Origin: an uncultured Pseudomonadales bacterium
GTDB lineage: Bacteria > Patescibacteriota > Microgenomatia > UBA1400 > PJMF01
DNA: 64,000 bases
Direction: 5' to 3'
Assembly (NCBI GenBank): GCA_964625685.1
Contig: CAZVBO010000002.1
Location: 55,440-119,439 of the forward strand
This document shows, in pieces, positions 16,602-43,148 of the stretch. The position numbers and the translations under genes were made by a program. Below the pieces are notes generated by a model. That model was not told where the DNA came from and ran no database searches. It worked only from the letters and a program-made list of their open reading frames with translations. The stretch's first letter is position 1. The number at the start of each line of letters is the position of its first letter.

Positions 16602-18056
16602 TTAAAACCACATCACGCTTTGATCCCGTTTCGGGCCCGTAGTCGCCATTAAAATTTTGACATTCAAACATTGTTGTAAGAATGCCAGATATTGTTGGGC
16701 TTCTTTTGGTAAATCTTTGGGTTTTGTAATGCCGGTAAGACTGGCACCATCCCAACTTGGTAATTCTAACCAAATGGGTTTCACATTATTTAAGAAGAGT
16801 TGATCAGGTTGATAACCCACTTCTTTACCATTTTTTTGATACCCAATACAGATTTTAATCGGTACATCAGGATAACTAATATCAAGATGGGTGACAACTA
16901 AATACTCAATTCGACCAATTTTCATTAAATATGACAACATGGGGATATCGACATGAATGATATCGCGAGGTCGCCCGGTGGTGGTGCCGTATTCATGAGC
17001 ATCATCTCGAATACGTTGTGCTAATTTACCCTTCATCTCACTGGGCAGCTTACGTGCTCCCACACTAGAATTATAAGTAGCTTTAGTGACAGCAGCTTTG
17101 AGGGAAATTAACTCAGGATCAATTATTCCTTGTGTTGAGGAAAAAATACCAGCCAACGTACAGTCGGAAGCAGTCACATCAGGATAGACCCCCCAGCGAA
17201 TATCCAATCCCATCGCTTGAGCCTTTTCAAACACAATCGGTGTATCTTTTTCCCAAGTTTTGTGAAGAAGTTCAGAGACAGGCTGAATAAATGGTTTCAA
17301 AACTTGACGAGCTTTTTCTAAACGATTAAGAAAGGTTTGTGGGGTGCCTACTTTGACCACACTGCCATCAATCCGAGCCACTTCAATTGTTTTGAGGTCT
17401 CCGCCCAAACCCTTAATCAAATCTCGATAGAGCAGATAGTGTTGGGTAAAAACTTCTTTCCAATTTGATTTTACAAAATCTCTCATTCGGAGAGGATGAC
17501 GGTAGGTAACATCGGCATAGGCCGGAGCGATCCCGCGTCCGGTGGAACCTTTAGAACCACTGGCCCGGGTTTTGAGGGCATTTTCATATGCTCGGTGAGT
17601 ATCTAGTGATAGTACCGCTAGTTCATCAATGATCAATTCAGCCGGAATTTTACCTTGGCAAGCTTGCTTGACGGACTCTAATTCGGTTACAAAATCTTCC
17701 GGATGTAGCACCATTTCTTTTCCAGAAATAACGGTACAACCCTTTTGAAGAATGCCAGCCCCAATTTGGTGAAGAGCGATTTTGGTGTCACCGACGGCTA
17801 CAGTGTGTCCTGCATTCGCTCCACCATTATCCCGATAATGAATCACTTTTTTTGATTTTGCTAAAAAAAGTGAAGTCAGTTCATCGGTAATACGGCCTTT
17901 GCCTTCATCTCCCAAAAATCCACCGACGACCGCAGCCGAATTCGGTCTCATTCCGGGTACTCGTAGGGGATTGGGTTTCAATTTTTGGGTAATGTTATCC
18001 AGCTCGCCTTTTTTATAGACTTGCTGGTAAATTTTTTTGACTTGGCTACTGGTCAT
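16602..18056 (-). CDS. purA: Adenylosuccinate synthetase
   Basis: GDEGKGRITD (P-loop-like GDEGKGK motif), GSTGRGIAPAY (GTTxRGIGPAY) and further GTP/IMP-site motifs; 484 aa, so somewhat longer than typical with insertions. Confidence 0.88.
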   Translation of the reverse strand: MTSSQVKKIYQQVYKKGELDNITQKLKPNPLRVPGMRPNSAAVVGGFLGDEGKGRITDELTSLFLAKSKKVIHYRDNGGANAGHTVAVGDTKIALHQIGAGILQKGCTVISGKEMVLHPEDFVTELESVKQACQGKIPAELIIDELAVLSLDTHRAYENALKTRASGSKGSTGRGIAPAYADVTYRHPLRMRDFVKSNWKEVFTQHYLLYRDLIKGLGGDLKTIEVARIDGSVVKVGTPQTFLNRLEKARQVLKPFIQPVSELLHKTWEKDTPIVFEKAQAMGLDIRWGVYPDVTASDCTLAGIFSSTQGIIDPELISLKAAVTKATYNSSVGARKLPSEMKGKLAQRIRDDAHEYGTTTGRPRDIIHVDIPMLSYLMKIGRIEYLVVTHLDISYPDVPIKICIGYQKNGKEVGYQPDQLFLNNVKPIWLELPSWDGASLTGITKPKDLPKEAQQYLAFLQQCLNVKILMATTGPKRDQSVMWF

Positions 18057-19468
18057 GATGCCTTTCGTTGAAGGTACTTGCTAAGTTGACGATGTGCTTT
18101 TTGGGCAATTTGGACACTCAGCCCAAGATATTTTTGAGGAGTAAGTTCACTTAGGTAAGTTCCCAGTTTTTGGGTGGTTTTTTGCCAATCAGCTTGACTA
18201 AATTCTTTACCCTTCAGCAGTGACATGGCGGTCTCATAGGCATGGGTATTTCCACTCGTTCGACCACTTACGTTTAACGCTTCAGCCAAAATATTCCAGT
18301 TAGCATTGAGATCAGCCGTCATTTGAGTGGTATTGACGGTAATCTGCTGAATACCACTGATGAGATTCTGATAGGCCAACAGAGAATGACCAAAAGCCAC
18401 ACCGATATTTCGGAGAACGGTACTATCAGATAAATCCCTTTGGAGTCGACTGATCGGAAGTTTCCGACTAAAACCTTCAAATAAGCTATTGGCTACTCCC
18501 AGGTTACCTTCACTATTTTCAAACTGAATGGGATTAATTTTTTGAGGCATAGTTGAAGAACCAACTTGACCCTTGGCATGATGTTGGACCAACCAGCCAT
18601 CACTAATATAACGCCACATATCCTGATTAAAATCAATCAAAATGGAGTTGAGTAAGTGATACTGTTGAAAGAGTTCGATCAAATCGTCAGCTGGATTAAT
18701 TTGAGTAGTAAAGTTGTTAGGAGTTAAACCCAGTGATTTGACAAATTTTCCTGAAAGAGTGAGCCAGTTAAGGTCAGGTTGAACAAAATAAAAAGAATTA
18801 AAACTCCCTATTGCACCACTCAGTTTTCCGGTTAGTTGGCAAGATTCCAGTTGTTGAATCTGATGTAAAAGACGCATCGCAAACACAGCCATTTCTTTGC
18901 CAAAAGTAGTGGGCACTGCACCCTGGCCGTGGGTTCGAGCCAGCATGGGTTGTTTTTGATATTTTTCAATCAAAGCAGCCAGCTCGATGAGTATTTTCTT
19001 GAGTTGGGGAAGTAATACTTGAGATTGGGAATCAATAATTTGTAATCTCCAGGCTAAATTGTTGATGTCTTCAGAAGTCAAACAATAGTGAAGATAAGGG
19101 ATCAGGTCTTTGAGTGAAGTTGTCTCAAATTGCTCTTTTAAAAAATATTCAATGGCCTTAATGTCATGATGAGTGGTTTGCTCGATGGTTTTAATGCGTT
19201 GAATTTGGTCCGGCTTAAGGGGAATGAGGTGGCGACATAATTTTTTTTCGGCAGGAGTGAGAGAACGGATAATTTTTTGTTCGCTTAGGAAAATAAAATA
19301 CCGGATTTCAATTTCACATCTTTTGTTAATGATGGCAGCTTCGCTAAAAAAAGAAGATAAACTTTGAGTTGCCGTATGATAACGACCATCAAGGGGAGAG
19401 AGTGCAGTTAGACTCATATCATCCATCAATCTATTTATAGCATAAAATAGAGGAACACAAGGAGCCAA
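18053..19468 (-). CDS. purB: Adenylosuccinate lyase
   Basis: Fumarate-lyase signature GSSTMPQKINPIQFENSEGN (compare SSAMPHKVNPIDFEN); 471 aa; 4-nt overlap with purA. Confidence 0.85.
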   Translation of the reverse strand: MAPCVPLFYAINRLMDDMSLTALSPLDGRYHTATQSLSSFFSEAAIINKRCEIEIRYFIFLSEQKIIRSLTPAEKKLCRHLIPLKPDQIQRIKTIEQTTHHDIKAIEYFLKEQFETTSLKDLIPYLHYCLTSEDINNLAWRLQIIDSQSQVLLPQLKKILIELAALIEKYQKQPMLARTHGQGAVPTTFGKEMAVFAMRLLHQIQQLESCQLTGKLSGAIGSFNSFYFVQPDLNWLTLSGKFVKSLGLTPNNFTTQINPADDLIELFQQYHLLNSILIDFNQDMWRYISDGWLVQHHAKGQVGSSTMPQKINPIQFENSEGNLGVANSLFEGFSRKLPISRLQRDLSDSTVLRNIGVAFGHSLLAYQNLISGIQQITVNTTQMTADLNANWNILAEALNVSGRTSGNTHAYETAMSLLKGKEFSQADWQKTTQKLGTYLSELTPQKYLGLSVQIAQKAHRQLSKYLQRKAS

Positions 19469-27769: not shown

Positions 27770-27910
27770 CTTTTTTCTTACTGTATCCATACTTTTCTGT
27801 TAAATACATACTAAATACATCAAAATATATCCTATATTTTTGGGGGTTGTCATATTTTTATTGATATAGTTTAATACCTATTAATCAAAAGTGAAGATTT
27901 TGAGGCGATG

Positions 27911-28090
27911 ACATCCAGATGTTTTCGCTCCCAAGCAACTGAATCTTGTACTGATCCTAGTACAGGAGAAAAACCAAGCGAGCTGAAACAGAGTGGATGT
28001 TTTTTTTTATAAAATTATGAAAAAGTGTAAGCAAAGTATCAATAATAAGAAAAAGGTTTAACTAAACCCCCGTTCGCTGCGGGGGTTTTT
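27911..28090 (+). repeat. Copy 1 of a conserved ~170-180-bp leader element ending in an intrinsic terminator (candidate cis-regulatory RNA)
   Basis: Near-identical to 30756-30926. Contains hairpin CTTGTACT-GATCCT-AGTACAGG, a 9-T run, a mini-ORF (28017-28061, MKKCKQSINNKKKV) and terminator AAACCCCCG-TTCGCT-GCGGGGGTTTTT (28066-28090), 16 nt before the ATG of the next gene. Confidence 0.8.
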
Positions 28091-28105
28091 GATAGAGGGA
28101 GAAAA

Positions 28106-28894
28106 ATGGTTACTCAGGAATACGAAATATTTTTATTAAGAGTACTCAAAGATTCATTGCATTTCACGGAATTACAACGGCTTTTAGAGTTACATCAGAA
28201 TAACTTGGAGCATGTTATTCTTGATTTAACCCCACAGCAACTCTGGCTTGTGGTAGAGAGGTGTGATGACCCTAGCCTTTTAAAGTTATTAACTCAAATT
28301 CGATTTGCAGGATCAGCTGAGTTGATGAATGACAACCCTGAAGAGCCTTTCATTCTTTGGGAACCGATGAATCGAGCTCCCGAGCCTTGGGTAGCTTTTG
28401 CCTTAGCCAAAGCAATAAAACTAGAAATACAAACTCCTAACGATACCCATATCATAACTATCCCTTCTTCTGGTAGTTGGCTGAAACCTGGAATGAAGGA
28501 AATATTTCCTGAAAACCCATATATAGACATCCTCCGAAAGGAAGATTTGGAACCGGATCAACCCTTTTTCTATGAGTTTGATGTCCCATCACATTCCCGT
28601 AATAGGGTTCCTCGCCTTATGGCTTTGCTGACAAACCCACTTGATTTAAAAGGTAAAAAGGTATTGGTAGTAGATGATGTTCTAGCTAGAGGTGATGCTG
28701 TGAAACATGTCAGTGAGATGCTCACTTTCTTTGGAGTGGAAGTAGTCCAATTTGGGGTAGTGATGAGTAAGATAATGCAGGGTGGTTCAAATCTGTTAGG
28801 TCAATTTGGGATTGAAAGGTCTACTACTTTAATTCCAGTTCAAGCAGTATTGAAGCGAGATGACCAATCTATTGATTATACTTTTAGTGAGTAA
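28106..28894 (+). CDS. Two-domain protein: unknown N-terminal domain (~150 aa) plus C-terminal type-I phosphoribosyltransferase domain
   Basis: C-terminal KGKKVLVVDDVLARGDAVKHV is the PRPP-binding motif of type I PRTases; the N-terminal half has no motif I recognise; RBS GAGGGAG upstream. Confidence 0.6.
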   Translation: MVTQEYEIFLLRVLKDSLHFTELQRLLELHQNNLEHVILDLTPQQLWLVVERCDDPSLLKLLTQIRFAGSAELMNDNPEEPFILWEPMNRAPEPWVAFALAKAIKLEIQTPNDTHIITIPSSGSWLKPGMKEIFPENPYIDILRKEDLEPDQPFFYEFDVPSHSRNRVPRLMALLTNPLDLKGKKVLVVDDVLARGDAVKHVSEMLTFFGVEVVQFGVVMSKIMQGGSNLLGQFGIERSTTLIPVQAVLKRDDQSIDYTFSE

Positions 28895-28899
28895 TATTT

Positions 28900-29217
28900 A
28901 TGCCATTTACACCTGATAATCCTTGTTTTGGTTGCCGACAAACTCAATTGGATGGAGAAAGAGTTGCGCCTTGCTGTTGGGATAATCAAATAATTATGGG
29001 TGTTATCAAGGCTATTCAATCTTTTCAGGGAAGACCTGGAGTAACTATTTATTCAACCTCCGATGAGATGGAAGTAAAAGTAGTTAATAATGGACCTTGT
29101 CCTCAACTCAACTTACAAACTGGAGCTTGTTTAATTCAAGGTCACAAGCCAGCTAGTTGTGAGAGTGTGGAACCTTACAATCATCGAATTTGTATTAAGA
29201 CTGATAAAAAGGAGTAA
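28900..29217 (+). CDS. Small Cys-rich protein, YkgJ-like CxxCxxCC putative Fe/Zn-chelating domain
   Basis: NPCFGCRQTQ...APCCWDN pattern (C-x2-C-x(n)-CC) plus additional Cys; 105 aa. Confidence 0.5.
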   Translation: MPFTPDNPCFGCRQTQLDGERVAPCCWDNQIIMGVIKAIQSFQGRPGVTIYSTSDEMEVKVVNNGPCPQLNLQTGACLIQGHKPASCESVEPYNHRICIKTDKKE

Positions 29218-29220
29218 AAA

Positions 29221-30732
29221 ATGATCGTCGTTATCGACTTTGGTTCTCAAACAGCCCATTTAATTGGCCGAAGACTCAGACAGTTAGGTATTGCAGTTGA
29301 GTATCTTGATCCTGCAAATGCTTTGAAACAAATAAAAAGACTTAAACCCTCTGGAATTATTTTTTCAGGTGGACCAAATAGTGTTTATGATCAAGGTGCA
29401 CCTACCACTGATTCTCAAATTTTAGAATTAAACATACCAATCTTTGGAATTTGTTATGGGTGGCAATTGATGGCTCAGATTATGGGCGGAAAAGTAGAAA
29501 ATACAGCCAAAGAATATGGACCAGAAACTTTAACGTATCAGAAGAACATATTTAATTTACCTGAAGAGAGTCCCCAAGTCTTTATGTCGCACGGAGATAC
29601 GGTAACTCAATGTCCCCAGGGTTTTGTTGTAGTTGCTTCAACGAAGAGTGTCGAAAATGCGGCAGTTATCAATAATAAAAAACAGATGATAGGAGTTCAA
29701 TTTCATCCCGAAGTGGATCACACTGAATATGGTCTAGAAGTCTTGAGGCATTTTGCAGAAAAAATGTGTGGGGAAATCACTTCTGAGATGAAGCTTGATC
29801 CCCAAAGTATTATTGAAGAAATTAAAGCAAAAGTTGGAACCAAAAAAGTTATTTGTGCTGTATCGGGTGGAGTTGATTCCACAGTGGCTGCTTCTTTGAT
29901 TGGTAAAGCGATAGGAAAGAATCTAATTCCGGTCTATGTTGAGAGTGGGTTGATGCGCCCTGAGACCAAAGAACATGTCATTAAAATCTTTACAGAGCAA
30001 ATTCATGCCAGTTTGGTAGTGGTTGAAGCCAAAGATCGGTTTATGACGGCTTTAGCTGGTAAAGCTGATCCCGAAGAAAAACGAAAAATTATTGGCAAAC
30101 TCTACGTGGATATTTTTCAAGAAGAATCAGAAAAACATGCAGGGGTAGCCTTTTTAGGTCAGGGTACAATTTACTCTGATGTAATTGAATCAAAGGGCTC
30201 GAAAGAAGCTTCTAAAATTAAATCTCACCACAATGTGGGGGGATTGCCTGATGAGGTAAAGTTTGAGCTTCTGGAGCCTGTGAGAAATTTCTACAAAGAT
30301 GAAGTTAGAGAATTGGGACGATTAATAGGTTTACCTGAAGAGCTTGTCATGCAACAACCATTTCCCGGTCCTGGATATGCGATTCGAATCCGAGGTAAAG
30401 TTACTGAAGAAAGATTGCAGAAAGAAATTATCGCTGATGGAATTGTAGTTGATGAAATTAAAAAAGCAGGTTTATACGAGCAAGTTTTCCAATGCTTTGC
30501 TATTATGACTGGTGCCTATAGTACTGCGGTCAAGGGAGATGCACGGGCTTTTGCCGAAGTAGTGGCTGTACGAGCCTACGAATCAAAAGACGTGATGACT
30601 TCTCAGTGGGCAAATATTCCTTATGAAGTTTTACAAAAGATTTCAAGTCGAATAGTCAATGAAGTCCCTGATGTATCAAGAGTAGTTTACGATATTACGA
30701 CTAAACCACCGGCCACCATGGAGTGGGAGTAA
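29221..30732 (+). CDS. guaA: GMP synthase (glutamine-hydrolysing), GATase plus ATP-pyrophosphatase domains
   Basis: GATase N-domain (ICYGWQLM catalytic Cys, HPEV His); PP-loop AVSGGVDSTVAASL; C-terminal dimerisation domain ending PPATMEWE; 503 aa. Confidence 0.9.
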   Translation: MIVVIDFGSQTAHLIGRRLRQLGIAVEYLDPANALKQIKRLKPSGIIFSGGPNSVYDQGAPTTDSQILELNIPIFGICYGWQLMAQIMGGKVENTAKEYGPETLTYQKNIFNLPEESPQVFMSHGDTVTQCPQGFVVVASTKSVENAAVINNKKQMIGVQFHPEVDHTEYGLEVLRHFAEKMCGEITSEMKLDPQSIIEEIKAKVGTKKVICAVSGGVDSTVAASLIGKAIGKNLIPVYVESGLMRPETKEHVIKIFTEQIHASLVVVEAKDRFMTALAGKADPEEKRKIIGKLYVDIFQEESEKHAGVAFLGQGTIYSDVIESKGSKEASKIKSHHNVGGLPDEVKFELLEPVRNFYKDEVRELGRLIGLPEELVMQQPFPGPGYAIRIRGKVTEERLQKEIIADGIVVDEIKKAGLYEQVFQCFAIMTGAYSTAVKGDARAFAEVVAVRAYESKDVMTSQWANIPYEVLQKISSRIVNEVPDVSRVVYDITTKPPATMEWE

Positions 30733-30755
30733 AAAGTAAATAATTTGTAGCGGAA

Positions 30756-30926
30756 ACATCTCGTTTTCGCTCCCAAGCAACTGAACCCTGTACTTTAGTA
30801 CAGGCGAAAAACCAAGCGAGCTAAAACAGAGTGGATGTTTTTTTTATAAAATTATGAAAAAGTGTAAGCAAAGTATCAATAATAGAAAAAGGTTTAACTA
30901 AACCCCCGTTCGCTGCGGGGGTTTTT
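30756..30926 (+). repeat. Copy 2 of the leader element, between guaA and the GNAT-like gene
   Basis: Same sequence blocks as copy 1 (TTTTCGCTCCCAAGCAACTGAA..., hairpin CCTGTAC-TTTA-GTACAGG, T-run, mini-ORF 30854-30901, identical terminator 30900-30926). About 90% identity, with indels. Confidence 0.8.
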
Positions 30927-30938
30927 AGTAAAGAAAAA

Positions 30939-31607
30939 ATGACAATTGAAATTAGACAAATTTTTGATGCCCAAGAACCTACAGAAATAGAATTAGCTTC
31001 TTTTGTCAGAGCCATTTGTGAGAACTTACAAAGATGTCCAGAGGAATTTGCACACATTGTTCGTCCCGTAAATACTCAGGATGAAGCAGAAGTGAAAGCT
31101 ATCGTGGCTTTAGTTCAGAGAAACTTCGGGGAACATCCCCACTATCAGATATCAGAGACAGAGGGAAATCATCCTCTTAATCAACGAGTAATCGCAAAAT
31201 ACAAAGAAGCAAATTCACTTAAGAACTTATGTGATTCTATGAATCAACCAAATGCCTTTCCCTTTCTGCTTGAACAAGATGGAGAAGTATTAGGGTTTAT
31301 ATTATGTAAAGTAGCAAATGATCAAACGTTAAGAGTTCATCGCTTACACACTTCACTTTCTGCTCCTGATAGGGGAGTGTTAGGAGCTGGCAAAGCTCTA
31401 CTCAATATGGCAGCAATGACGGCACGTAGACTAAATATTTCTACTTTAACTTCAACCGCTTCATATCCGGCAAAAGGATACTTTGAGCACTTAGGTTGGA
31501 GAGGTGAACTAGAACAGAATGAATTTCCTTTTGATGATGGGGAAACAGTAACTTTGACTCAATTTAGATGTTTTTTTGAAATACCAATAGACTTTGAAGG
31601 ATTTTGA
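30939..31607 (+). CDS. Hypothetical protein, probable GNAT-fold acetyltransferase
   Basis: Possible motif A DRGVLGAGKALLNMAAMTARRLNI (R/Q-x-x-G-x-G/A); 222 aa. Confidence 0.45.
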   Translation: MTIEIRQIFDAQEPTEIELASFVRAICENLQRCPEEFAHIVRPVNTQDEAEVKAIVALVQRNFGEHPHYQISETEGNHPLNQRVIAKYKEANSLKNLCDSMNQPNAFPFLLEQDGEVLGFILCKVANDQTLRVHRLHTSLSAPDRGVLGAGKALLNMAAMTARRLNISTLTSTASYPAKGYFEHLGWRGELEQNEFPFDDGETVTLTQFRCFFEIPIDFEGF

Positions 31608-31971
31608 TATGTCACTCTATACTAAATCAGCCCAACTACCACCTCAGAAAAAAGATGGTATTAGAATATGCATTATGAGAAGACCAGGTGATGAGATTCA
31701 ATGGGATATTTGGATTCCTCATTTAGCACCTTCTCATCAATTACTAACTGATTATCATCAAGGAAAAGTAGATTGGGATGGGTTTTGTGTTCAATTTCAA
31801 AAGGAAGTAATTAAAGATAAAAAAGAGTATCTTCAAGTTGTTATAGATTTAGCAAAACTTCACGATATTACACTTATTTGTTGGGAAGAGACCCCGGAAC
31901 GATGTCATCGGAGACTCATTGCTGAAGAGTGTAAAAAAATAAATACTTCTTTAGAGGTTGTTATCAAGTAA
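31594..31971 (+). CDS. DUF488-family protein
   Basis: 125 aa with the RICIMRRPGDE...W...LAPS..LL...CW..P..CHRRL pattern characteristic of DUF488. Confidence 0.5.
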   Translation: MKDFDMSLYTKSAQLPPQKKDGIRICIMRRPGDEIQWDIWIPHLAPSHQLLTDYHQGKVDWDGFCVQFQKEVIKDKKEYLQVVIDLAKLHDITLICWEETPERCHRRLIAEECKKINTSLEVVIK

Positions 31972-32774
31972 TGAGGAAGATAGAATCTTTCCCAGATCGT
32001 TTGATTATTGCTACAGGAAACCATCAAAAAGCTCGAGCTTATGAGCAATATCCATTTCCTTATATTGATACTTTAGATCCTGAAACAGACTGTGGTGTTG
32101 AAGAGTCACTCTCTTCTGATCCCAAAGAGGTAGCTTGGCAGAAGTCAAATATAGTAGTAGCTACGTTATTAGATTTATGGCCTAGTCAAAATAATTTTGT
32201 TGTTACAGGGAATGATGTAGCGGCTTTTTTTTCTACAACTTTTGAAGGTTTATTTAACTCTTTTCAACGAAAAGAATTAAAAAAGCTTATGCGGTACATA
32301 AGTAAACTTACCACAGATCGGGAACGGCAAAATTTTTTAGCGAGAAAACAAGAAGAAACACTCGTTATGTATTGCAATGGACAATTCCATTTTCGATGGA
32401 TAGTGGGCTTTTCAATTCAAGTTCCCAAAACAGATTTAAATATTACAGGTGAAGTTGATATTGTTGGTGTTTTTAATCCTTTAGCAGAATCTTTAGTTAT
32501 CCAGAGTTTTCAGGATAATAGTGCACTTCATATGAGTCCAAGAGTGCCTTTAGCTTTGGTGCTTGATCTATATGCTCATAAACTTTTTCGAAGAGAAGAG
32601 GATGGTTTACAACCAATTGATAATGCTACTGTCTATTCATTAGTGGTGAATGGAGTGTTACCATACAGTTCTTTTGAAGATTTGGTACTAAACAGGGAAA
32701 TTTTGGGTAAAACAAAAAATTATATAATAAAACCAATTCATTTAAGCACTGGGGAAAAACATGACATTGCATGA
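31971..32774 (+). CDS. Hypothetical protein; N-terminus weakly Ham1/RdgB (ITPase)-like
   Basis: LIIATGNHQKARAYEQ resembles the Ham1 N-terminal (L/V)ATGNxGK motif; the rest is not alignable by eye; 267 aa. Confidence 0.4.
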   Translation: MRKIESFPDRLIIATGNHQKARAYEQYPFPYIDTLDPETDCGVEESLSSDPKEVAWQKSNIVVATLLDLWPSQNNFVVTGNDVAAFFSTTFEGLFNSFQRKELKKLMRYISKLTTDRERQNFLARKQEETLVMYCNGQFHFRWIVGFSIQVPKTDLNITGEVDIVGVFNPLAESLVIQSFQDNSALHMSPRVPLALVLDLYAHKLFRREEDGLQPIDNATVYSLVVNGVLPYSSFEDLVLNREILGKTKNYIIKPIHLSTGEKHDIA

Positions 32775-42921: not shown

Positions 42922-43148
42922 CAGCAGTCTTACACTTCTCTTGCTAAAGTGATCCCTTTTTATATAGAGACGCATCTTGTTCCAGATGGATGTTTTTGAT
43001 ATAGTTTTTGCTACATGAGTTCGCTCTGGCAATTAAAAAAGAGACCTAGTCTTTTTACCTAAATGGGTTGAAAGATTGGGTCTTTTTTATCAGTTATTTT
43101 CCTTGACTCTTGCCCAATAGAGCTAAAAGGGAAGTAAGGAGGTTGATA

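Follow-up and report, generated by a model that had tools for sequence, protein, structure and literature searches.

A candidate termination-switch leader RNA at guanine-nucleotide salvage genes of Patescibacteria

Why should the GMP synthase gene guaA of an uncultured bacterium be flanked by two direct copies of the same sequence of about 185 nt, each ending just before a start codon? The question is raised by a 64-kb stretch of DNA (contig CAZVBO010000002.1; the whole stretch analysed is called the window below) from the Candidate Phyla Radiation (CPR, or Patescibacteria), a huge and mostly uncultured part of bacterial diversity with tiny genomes, no de novo nucleotide synthesis and a dependence on salvage, whose gene regulation is, to our knowledge, almost entirely uncharted. 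An initial annotation, made from the letters alone, had read the copies as the leader RNA of a riboswitch or attenuator with a link to purines or phosphoribosyl pyrophosphate (PRPP), and had named a duplicated small RNA (sRNA) gene and the repeats of a mobile cassette as alternatives. Its central reading is supported by the recurrence of the element in relatives, by covariation in three helices (P1, P2 and P3) and by the lack of a match in Rfam 15: with a probability of about 0.85, we regard the element as a conserved, structured, cis-acting termination-switch leader of GMP-salvage operons. With distinctly less assurance, we favour an effector that is a directly bound small molecule, which would make the element a true riboswitch, most likely an OFF switch responding to guanine or a guanine nucleotide.

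Recurrence of the element in related genomes

The copies run from 27903 to 28095 (copy 1) and from 30748 to 30931 (copy 2). Aligned with MAFFT (27880-28110 against 30722-30943), they have a mean column identity of 91%, and the ungapped blocks that they share are 87-96% identical, in agreement with the roughly 90% first reported; the starting points then given, 27911 and 30756, have to be moved by about 8 nt in the 5' direction to take in a conserved leader strand that precedes P1. The identity is uneven: it is 76% over the 5' third and rises to 86-96% once the hairpin is reached. Within the 64 kb there are exactly two occurrences of the 22-mer TTTTCGCTCCCAAGCAACTGAA and two of the 24-mer CCCCCGTTCGCTGCGGGGGTTTTT, with none expected from shuffled sequences. 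Each copy was said to sit directly 5' of a start codon, and so it does, with 11-16 nt between them: ATG 28106 opens the gene of a protein with a phosphoribosyltransferase (PRTase) domain and ATG 30939 that of a GNAT protein. The smaller features described at the time were all found again, namely two CCAAGC blocks, a central hairpin, ACAUCC/GGAUGU followed by a run of eight or nine U, a mini open reading frame (mini-ORF) of 14 or 15 codons, and a GC-rich hairpin with U5. With the filters of the covariance model off, the window holds only these two core matches, and the reverse strands reach 11-13 bits. A third candidate copy at 43033-43094 was rejected, as it scored 18 bits (E of about 0.2-1) and consists of a hairpin and a T-run between genes, resembling an ordinary bidirectional terminator.

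Relatives were reached through homologues of the 262-aa PRTase of the window, which led to L001, a syntenic Logan contig with 74% amino acid identity, and then through GuaA homologues of about 70% identity (L049, L057 and L053); the copy in L054/L055 was found by the covariance model itself. Together with the window, these give eight distinct core copies in six related CPR genomes, scoring 70-107 bits with covariance model R2, while the best score outside them was 20.3 bits across 479 kb that included 45 chance pattern loci and the Gottesmanbacteria-type guaA loci. L001 carries the element at both syntenic sites (copies A and B), solely as its 5' part of about 105 nt and with central hairpins entirely different in sequence from those of the window. 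Single copies lie 5' of PRTase-X-guaA in L049, of PRTase-guaA-IMPDH (IMP dehydrogenase) in L057, there within a divergent intergenic region, and of adenosine deaminase-IMPDH-guaA in both L053 and L054/L055. The bracketing of guaA by two copies, emphasised by the initial annotation, is thus real in the window and specific to the lineage of the window and L001; it is not a general trait of the element. The covariance model found no copy in the Gottesmanbacteria-type loci L050-L052 and L058-L061. Scans for CCAAGCAACNGAA-N20-50-AAACCAAGC matched 19 loci in genome contigs and 26 in metagenome contigs, all 45 of them without a flanking P2 helix and U-tract and at 20.3 bits or less, and these were set aside as chance matches or coding repeats; the loop pattern of the contig scans was too strict for the variants CCAAGUAAC, CCAAGACAC and CCAAGUU seen later. 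Exact and degenerate pattern scans of viral contigs gave no matches.

More importantly, the genes next to the copies tell a consistent story. Six of the eight copies head operons that hold guaA and an Xpt-like or Hpt-like PRTase, adenosine deaminase or IMPDH, and the remaining two directly follow guaA. The first gene 3' of the element encodes an Xpt-like protein in the window, L001 and L049, an Hpt/Gpt-like one in L057, and adenosine deaminase in L053 and L054; these proteins are unrelated or distantly related, yet all route salvaged purines to GMP. The gene guaA is present in every headed operon, and an IMPDH without CBS domains in three. With first genes from differing protein families, autoregulation by the product of the first gene is less likely. 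In L001, the copy after guaA precedes the genes of a 294-aa protein, an HD protein and an Hpt-like PRTase. The element always has the orientation of the downstream gene, its U-tract lying 9-97 nt from the next ATG, and such a sense-orientation position in 5' leaders, with a single metabolic theme, is what is expected of a riboswitch. The purine or PRPP link proposed from the window alone therefore extends to the relatives, where the core always lies 5' of, or right after, genes of guanine-nucleotide salvage.

Some side observations belong to these loci. An 82-aa gene call at L054:328-576 (the same in L055) overlaps the RNA element at 443-541 and is probably spurious; unannotated 82-aa reading frames also occur near upp/dNK in L050-L052 and L061, where the covariance model found no copy of the element. 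The IMPDHs of the element-led operons (L053:3832-4992, L054:1611-2768 and L057:6543-7619) are 358-386 aa long and lack a CBS/Bateman match, and the element-less L050 locus has a 483-aa IMPDH with CBS; with this nucleotide-sensing module lost, control might have moved to the RNA. The two do not go together without exception, the IMPDH of L058 being CBS-less with no copy in its 21.5-kb locus. Two Logan contigs of the window strain with identical guaA, L047 and L048, are 2.5-2.9 kb long and have their 3' ends inside copy 2 or its module, which suggests that short-read assembly stops at the repeat and, in turn, that metagenome assemblies may under-represent the element and its surroundings.

The conserved fold and its competing helix

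The conserved core is an unbranched fold, with no branch points, made of P1, P2, a large internal loop and a variable hairpin P3. Its parts in the window are as follows.

27903-28008, + strand: copy 1 core (leader, P1, P2, internal loop, P3 and U-tract), 102.6 bits with R2; minimum free energy (MFE) fold P1-P2-P3, z = -4.1
27904-27912, + strand: copy 1 leader, the putative anti-terminator strand GGCGAUGAC, consensus AGCGRAARC; alternative partner 27921-27929
27910-27917, + strand: copy 1 P1 5' strand GACAUCCA; partner 27994-28001
27920-27930, + strand: copy 1 P2 5' strand UGUUUUCGCUC, common to P2 and the anti-terminator; partner 27980-27990
27931-27943, + strand: copy 1 internal loop, 5' side CCAAGCAACUGAA
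27944-27967, + strand: copy 1 variable hairpin P3, unrelated in sequence to that of L001A, L049, L053, L054 and L057
27968-27979, + strand: copy 1 internal loop, 3' side GAAAAACCAAGC
27980-27990, + strand: copy 1 P2 3' strand GAGCUGAAACA, from covariation and the MFE fold
27994-28008, + strand: copy 1 P1 3' strand UGGAUGUU and, continuous with it, the U9 tract; conserved intrinsic terminator
28000-28008, + strand: copy 1 U-tract, overlapping the end of P1
30748-30845, + strand: copy 2 core, 16 nt after the guaA stop; 98.3 bits with R2; MFE fold P1-P2-P3
30749-30757, + strand: copy 2 leader
30756-30761 and 30833-30838, + strand: copy 2 P1
30763-30772 and 30818-30827, + strand: copy 2 P2
30773-30785 and 30806-30817, + strand: copy 2 loops
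30786-30805, + strand: copy 2 P3
30838-30845, + strand: copy 2 U8 tract

In all eight copies CCAAG is invariant on both strands of the internal loop; set antiparallel, the two strands show by their sequence a quasi-symmetric order of C-G / A·A / A·A / G-C. P2 holds a conserved C·Y mismatch, and P3 is 6 bp with a 3-nt loop at its smallest and a branched insert of about 55 nt at its largest. P1 is followed directly by seven to nine U in every copy, giving the stable stem and U-tract of an intrinsic terminator; the initial annotation had taken a downstream CCCCCG terminator for the expression platform, and this part of it has to be given up, as that terminator and the mini-ORF occur in no relative and the conserved platform is P1 with its U-run.

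The annotation had proposed looking for recurrence and covariation in related genomes, and the copies found there at purine genes covary in P1, P2 and P3. In alignment A5, which is based on the covariance model, 91.8% of the cells are paired; shuffles give 77.7%, and sliding the partners lowers the figure to 43-58%. Compensatory changes occur at 15 of the 25 modelled pairs (P1 5 of 6, distal P2 2 of 6 and P3 8 of 9), and none of 500 shuffles reached any of five covariation measures. The variants of P1 include ACAUCC/GGAUGU, CACUUG/CAAGUG and CACC/GGUG. MAFFT alone misaligns P3, with its 1-nt loop indel and long inserts, and the model-based alignment was taken instead; RNAalifold on the plain MAFFT alignment still recovers P1, P2 and the base of P3, and single-sequence folding gives the same P1-P2-P3 in all eight copies, with z of -2.0 to -5.3. 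G-U pairs in P1 and P3 identify the + strand as the functional one. What emerges is a covarying structured domain with conserved unpaired nucleotides (CCAAG and AAACCAAG are invariant), as in known riboswitches. The earlier argument that the differing hairpins of the two window copies reveal selection is weak, the two having been homogenised recently; the real covariation comes from the other genomes.

The switch itself is suggested by a second pairing. The leader AGCGRAARC can pair with the 5' strand of P2, GYUUUCGCU, in a helix that excludes P2 and keeps the 5' strand of P1 within its loop. Over the eight copies this helix pairs in 94.4% of cells (42-51% in slid controls), and the leader columns were modelled as unpaired, so that the alignment is not fitted to it. 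It has one compensatory pair, 9-24 (AU in five copies, GC in two and GU in one), and the same U-to-C change in the shared column 24 appears in P2 pair 24-128 (UA in six, CG in two), both partners thus tracking that column; the covariation support is modest. When the nascent RNA is folded up to the 3' CCAAG, the leader hairpin with P3 is the MFE structure in all eight copies, and at full length it is the terminator fold, 2.0-8.5 kcal/mol below the best fold that keeps the leader helix. As modelled, this energy landscape would be that of a kinetically controlled termination switch in which the anti-terminator forms first and its displacement starts at the conserved loop; the terminator, with P1 and U7-9 in every copy, and the conserved leader:P2 anti-terminator are predicted to be mutually exclusive.

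A promoter-like sequence precedes copy 1, and it is kept in L001.

27847-27875, + strand: sigma-70-like promoter (TTGTCA-N17-TTTAAT), a consensus match alone, at 10 of 12 hexamer positions; ends 28 nt before the leader

Comparable sites, matching at 8-10 of 12 positions, end 21-38 nt 5' of the leader in copy 1, L049, L053, L054 and L057. These five are the operon-heading copies without an insertion; the sixth such copy, L001A, has at this place a MITE-like (miniature inverted-repeat transposable element-like) insertion of about 164 nt (L001:9660-9823) with perfect 19-nt terminal inverted repeats (TIRs), TAGACTTGTAGCTAAATAA and TTATTTAGCTACAAGTCTA, between the promoter-like region and its leader. 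The insertion is absent at the matching position of the window, and it would lengthen the leader or split it from its promoter. Copy 2 and L001B lie a few nt after guaA, and the best promoter-like score at copy 2 is at most 7 of 12.

Put together, these parts suggest the following course of events. Transcription would start about 25-40 nt upstream of the leader, which would pair first with GYUUUCGCU, trapping the 5' strand of P2 and holding that of P1 in the hairpin loop; P3 would form next. Once the 3' strands of the loop and of P2 emerge, the effector could bind the internal loop with its two CCAAG blocks and help P2 to displace the leader helix, so that P1 would form right next to the U7-9 tract and bring the polymerase to a stop; with no effector, the leader helix would last long enough for read-through. 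Copy 1 would in this manner gate the operon of the Xpt-like PRTase, a CxxCxxCC protein and guaA from its own promoter, and copy 2, read from the guaA transcript, would gate passage into the genes that follow. The small-molecule nature of the effector, its identity, the OFF direction and the kinetic order are what we infer; the most likely candidates for the effector are guanine, GMP, GDP, GTP or a close relative.

In the window, each core is followed by a further module.

28009-28095, + strand: copy 1 3' module, with a mini-ORF at 28017-28061 (peptide MKKCKQSINNKKKV, then stop) and a second terminator hairpin with U5 at 28064-28090
30846-30931, + strand: copy 2 3' module, with a mini-ORF at 30854-30901 (peptide MKKCKQSINNRKRFN, then stop) and a second terminator at 30903-30926

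Among the six genomes, the second terminator (CCCCCG...GGGGG-U5) is found in this one only. A related AT-rich sequence is kept in L001A, but it encodes another peptide, MKNDSQIIINRGRQNGC, reaching over the main start codon, and comes with no second terminator; neither mini-ORF nor second terminator is present in L049, L053, L054, L057 or L001B. Mini-ORF and second terminator are a recent add-on in this genome. A role of the mini-ORF as a conserved leader peptide was rejected, the peptide not being conserved among the copies, and nothing points to a ribosome-mediated attenuator: the core is without a reading frame, and the mini-ORF lies 3' of the core in the window and encodes a differing peptide in L001A. 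Its stop codon nevertheless falls 2-8 nt before the hairpin in both window copies, despite a frame-shifting 1-nt indel, and it may be speculated that a terminating ribosome masks the second hairpin and renders the second terminator translation-dependent.

The same comparison sheds light on the history of copy 2. In the 5' segment, from the leader to the 5' loop, copy 1 is 90% identical to L001A and copy 2 is 97% identical to L001B, while the two window copies are 76% identical to each other. From P3 to the U-tract the corresponding values are 74%, 57% and 86%, and in the 50 nt after the U-tract 67%, 48% and 96%; copies A and B of L001 are 54% identical in the 3' segment. Copy 2 is accordingly a mosaic, whose 5' third is the ancestral post-guaA copy and whose sequence from P3 through the second terminator has been overwritten with sequence of the copy 1 type, by gene conversion or recombination inside this lineage and with an exchange point within the invariant CCAAGCAACUGAA block. 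The identity of about 90% between the window copies is then explained by the conversion tract in copy 2.

Known families and rival explanations

The core had not been matched to any riboswitch consensus by eye, and a search with covariance models agrees. Rfam 15 (4227 families) was run on the window at gathering score, on the region at E <= 10, and on isolated cores (window and L053) and five relatives' loci; the core had no match at either level, and the models of ykkC subtype 2, ZTP, preQ1, c-di-GMP, T-box and the PyrR site were among those that failed to match it at E <= 10. The weak matches were snoRNA and lncRNA noise, and on the 3' module there was only terminator-like noise from rimP and Phe/Trp leaders (18-25 bits). 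No account of the motif came up in full-text literature searches on CPR riboswitches, guaA-associated candidates and guanine-nucleotide riboswitches. A SAM-I (S-box) riboswitch was detected before metK at L049:2322-2435, with 41.2 bits (E = 2e-8) against a gathering score of 44.4. The Rfam models thus do reach this lineage, and CPR versions of known riboswitches may be systematically under-called at default thresholds.

Among the closest known regulators are the purine riboswitches (RF00167), which likewise occupy leaders of purine salvage and GMP-synthesis genes (xpt, PRTases and guaA) and so likely have the same physiological role. The guanine-I, guanine-II, xanthine-II and 2'-deoxyguanosine riboswitches all have a three-stem junction, and guanine-I is a transcription-terminating OFF switch (PMC9295807), also for guaA (PMC5393184). 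The RNA of the window differs from these classes in being unbranched, with no three-stem junction in any of the eight copies, in showing no similarity by sequence or covariance model, and in using its own P1 as terminator stem with the competing strand upstream, whereas purine riboswitches have a separate downstream platform. Xanthine-I (NMT1) is a rod-like two-stem RNA with conserved nucleotides in an internal bulge and a purine-sensing OFF switch, restricted to Proteobacteria, controlling translation of purine oxidation and transport genes and almost never equipped with terminators (PMC7373994). The element shares its general topology of two stems and a bulge, but the loop sequences are unrelated, the conserved J1-2a / J2a-1 nucleotides are lacking and no model match was found at E <= 10. 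The pyr leader, in which the protein PyrR binds a defined RNA stem-loop, resembles the element as the leader of a nucleotide pathway with competing terminator and anti-terminator and often a PRTase-fold gene next to it; unlike there, no PyrR site was matched, the downstream PRTases are not PyrR, and two operons have no PRTase. The ykkC subtype 2 riboswitches (PRPP, ppGpp and ADP/CDP) respond to PRPP or to nucleotides of the purine pathway and act through terminators on purine and nucleotide genes; they have a different fold and gave no model match, and PRPP riboswitches are ON switches, while OFF is predicted here. If the model holds, the element would work like a guanine-type OFF riboswitch; it falls outside every known family.

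The rival that shares most with this reading keeps the switch and replaces the small molecule with an RNA-binding protein, for example a dimer that recognises both CCAAG blocks much as PyrR or TRAP would, itself responsive to a purine nucleotide or PRPP and acting by stabilising the terminator fold. RNA-binding attenuators are known among proteins of the PRTase fold, PyrR being one, a PRTase gene comes first after four of the eight copies, and the PRTase of the window has an unexplained N-terminal extension of about 100 aa. The first-gene PRTases are, however, not one family (Xpt-like versus Hpt/Gpt-like, with pairwise E of 0.003-0.025 or a mere 46-aa match), the operons of L053 and L054 have no PRTase at all, and PyrR models score 16-26 bits against a cut-off of 138, with the Rfam PyrR site unmatched. 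In addition, the single internal loop holds about 25 near-invariant unpaired nucleotides, and such conservation is typical of metabolite pockets. We consider a protein effector unlikely, if well worth keeping in mind. It could also be that the transcript of about 125 nt up to the U-tract is functional in itself, the copies being genes of trans-acting or riboswitch-derived sRNAs, and that the proximity of guaA is incidental or secondary: the promoter-like site and the terminator of copy 1 do define a discrete transcript of about 130 nt, and other bacteria offer examples of terminated riboswitch leaders that function as sRNAs. This is improbable, and with it the duplicated sRNA gene of the initial annotation, given that the orientation is always that of the downstream gene and the distance to its ATG always 9-97 nt, that the gene association is consistent over six genomes despite varied operon orders, that copy 2 and L001B are promoterless, and that a conserved anti-terminator alternative would be purposeless in a stand-alone sRNA.

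Each core being a long hairpin with U7-9, the copies might also be ordinary intrinsic terminators of the upstream genes (pyrF and guaA) whose sequence is conserved by happenstance; pairing is possible between an A-rich leader and the U-tract, a trait of bidirectional terminators, and copy 2 lies just after guaA. In L057, however, the upstream genes are divergent, on the other strand, so that the element is no 3' untranslated region there; in five copies a promoter-like site intervenes between the upstream gene and the element, and in L001B, L049 and L053 the 9-31 nt before the ATG leave no room for a separate downstream promoter. Nor do plain terminators keep about 25 invariant unpaired nucleotides and a competing helix while their stems diverge completely, and we find this explanation very improbable. 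Hardly credible, finally, is the view that a 2.8-kb cassette was inserted recently with the copies as its terminal direct repeats, or that they are a neutral recent duplication or repetitive element without a role in regulation. The window copies are 91-96% identical even in sequence that is not conserved elsewhere, and same-strain short-read assemblies break at them; the identity is explained by the conversion tract from P3 to the second terminator. The L001 copies occupy both syntenic sites, are mutually divergent and are each orthologous in the 5' segment to their window counterpart, and L049, L053, L054 and L057 each have one copy, 5' of operons with differing gene orders, which excludes the cassette repeats first suggested; there are also no TIRs and no transposase, and just two copies in 64 kb. 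The MITE-like insertion beside L001A, with its 19-nt TIRs, is of a quite different make. Even taken jointly, the sRNA, plain-terminator and cassette readings have a small share of the probability.

Several observations weigh against the small-molecule termination switch that we favour. Eight copies from six closely related genomes of a narrow and sparsely sampled lineage have little phylogenetic depth, and alignment A5 was fitted to the model, which biases its covariation counts; the four GCUC/GAGC pairs of P2 never vary and so are uninformative on covariation, and the loops are near-identical. For the leader helix there is a single compensatory pair, and the score of this helix is attained in 39 of 500 shuffles. 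With the terminator fold thermodynamically favoured even without a ligand, the switching must be kinetic. The quasi-two-fold symmetry of CCAAG on both loop strands suits a dimeric protein. Neither copy 2 nor L001B has its own promoter, and the GNAT and DUF488 genes after copy 2 show no obvious link to purines. Finally, the strong second terminator after each window copy would, unless bypassed, block expression regardless of the state of the switch.

A more ambitious version of the riboswitch reading would make the element the first riboswitch class exclusive to CPR/Patescibacteria, sensing a guanine nucleotide (GMP, GDP, GTP or (p)ppGpp, not the free base) in a quasi-two-fold loop of two CCAAG blocks and serving, through an 'inverted' platform, as the main feedback control of GMP synthesis in bacteria that rely wholly on purine salvage; by inverted we mean that the terminator is formed by P1 of the aptamer itself and that the anti-terminator strand comes before the aptamer. 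We offer this version tentatively, at less than even odds. A lineage-specific RNA switch on the route from salvage to GMP (adenosine deaminase, IMPDH, purine PRTases and GMP synthase) would be a direct handle on regulation in CPR bacteria, and its design would be unusually compact, with sensor and terminator in one helix. It would also be a new fold for purine-sensing RNAs, all of which, as far as we know, have so far had a three-stem junction or the NMT1 scaffold. Riboswitch candidates that are rare and narrowly distributed can evidently be recovered from one genome window and a few metagenomic relatives. An inducible expression system is still needed for these organisms, and riboswitches are among the promising options that a review of Patescibacteria genetics names for it (PMC11665869); a native switch would be a natural place to begin.

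Neighbouring genes

The proteins of the window include a penicillin-binding protein, topoisomerase I, PurA, ArgG, serine hydroxymethyltransferase, cysteinyl-tRNA synthetase and a type I restriction enzyme; its GC content is 35-43% (mean about 39%), and the majority of the genes are on a single strand. The nearest named GuaA relatives are from Gottesmanbacteria, Pacebacteria and the 'Patescibacteria group', and a megablast of the 3.4-kb region against phages and plasmids gave zero matches. The window is DNA of a cellular CPR bacterium, neither phage nor plasmid. The covariance model scan found no copy near purA (AMP branch) or its neighbouring gene (16602-19468, minus strand). Copy 1 is placed between a pyrimidine block (pyrD-upp-pyrE-pyrF) and the PRTase-guaA block, and the genes after the two copies are the following.

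28106-30732, + strand: operon 3' of copy 1 (Pfam and NCBIfam)
28106-28894, + strand: Xpt-like PRTase, 262 aa (Pfam and NCBIfam)
28900-29217, + strand: CxxCxxCC protein, 105 aa
29221-30732, + strand: GMP synthase guaA (Pfam and NCBIfam)
30939-32774, + strand: genes 3' of copy 2 (Pfam)
30939-31607, + strand: GNAT acetyltransferase
31594-31971, + strand: DUF488 protein
31971-32774, + strand: 267-aa protein without a Pfam match

The N-terminal extension of the window PRTase matches neither Pfam nor NCBIfam, and its PRTase domain is weakly Xpt-like, with 36 bits against a cut-off of 177; two homologues were found among 5.8 billion proteins. Its domain order resembles that of PurR of B. subtilis, an N-terminal DNA-binding domain and a PRTase fold, and by this analogy the protein could be a regulator rather than an enzyme. 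The CxxCxxCC protein between PRTase and guaA, of a putative zinc/iron-chelating type, is kept in L001 (102 aa); L049 has another uncharacterised protein of 180 aa at this place, and L057 has none.

The 267-aa protein and the 294-aa protein encoded 3' of copy B in L001 (L001:12770-13654) share a (V/I)x(C/A)TGNxQK stretch. This short stretch resembles the N-terminal motif of Ham1/ITPase; that identity was not established for either protein (BLASTP E = 0.31, no Pfam match). If the two proteins are homologous, the GNAT and DUF488 genes of the window would have been inserted between copy 2 and the gene that it originally targeted.

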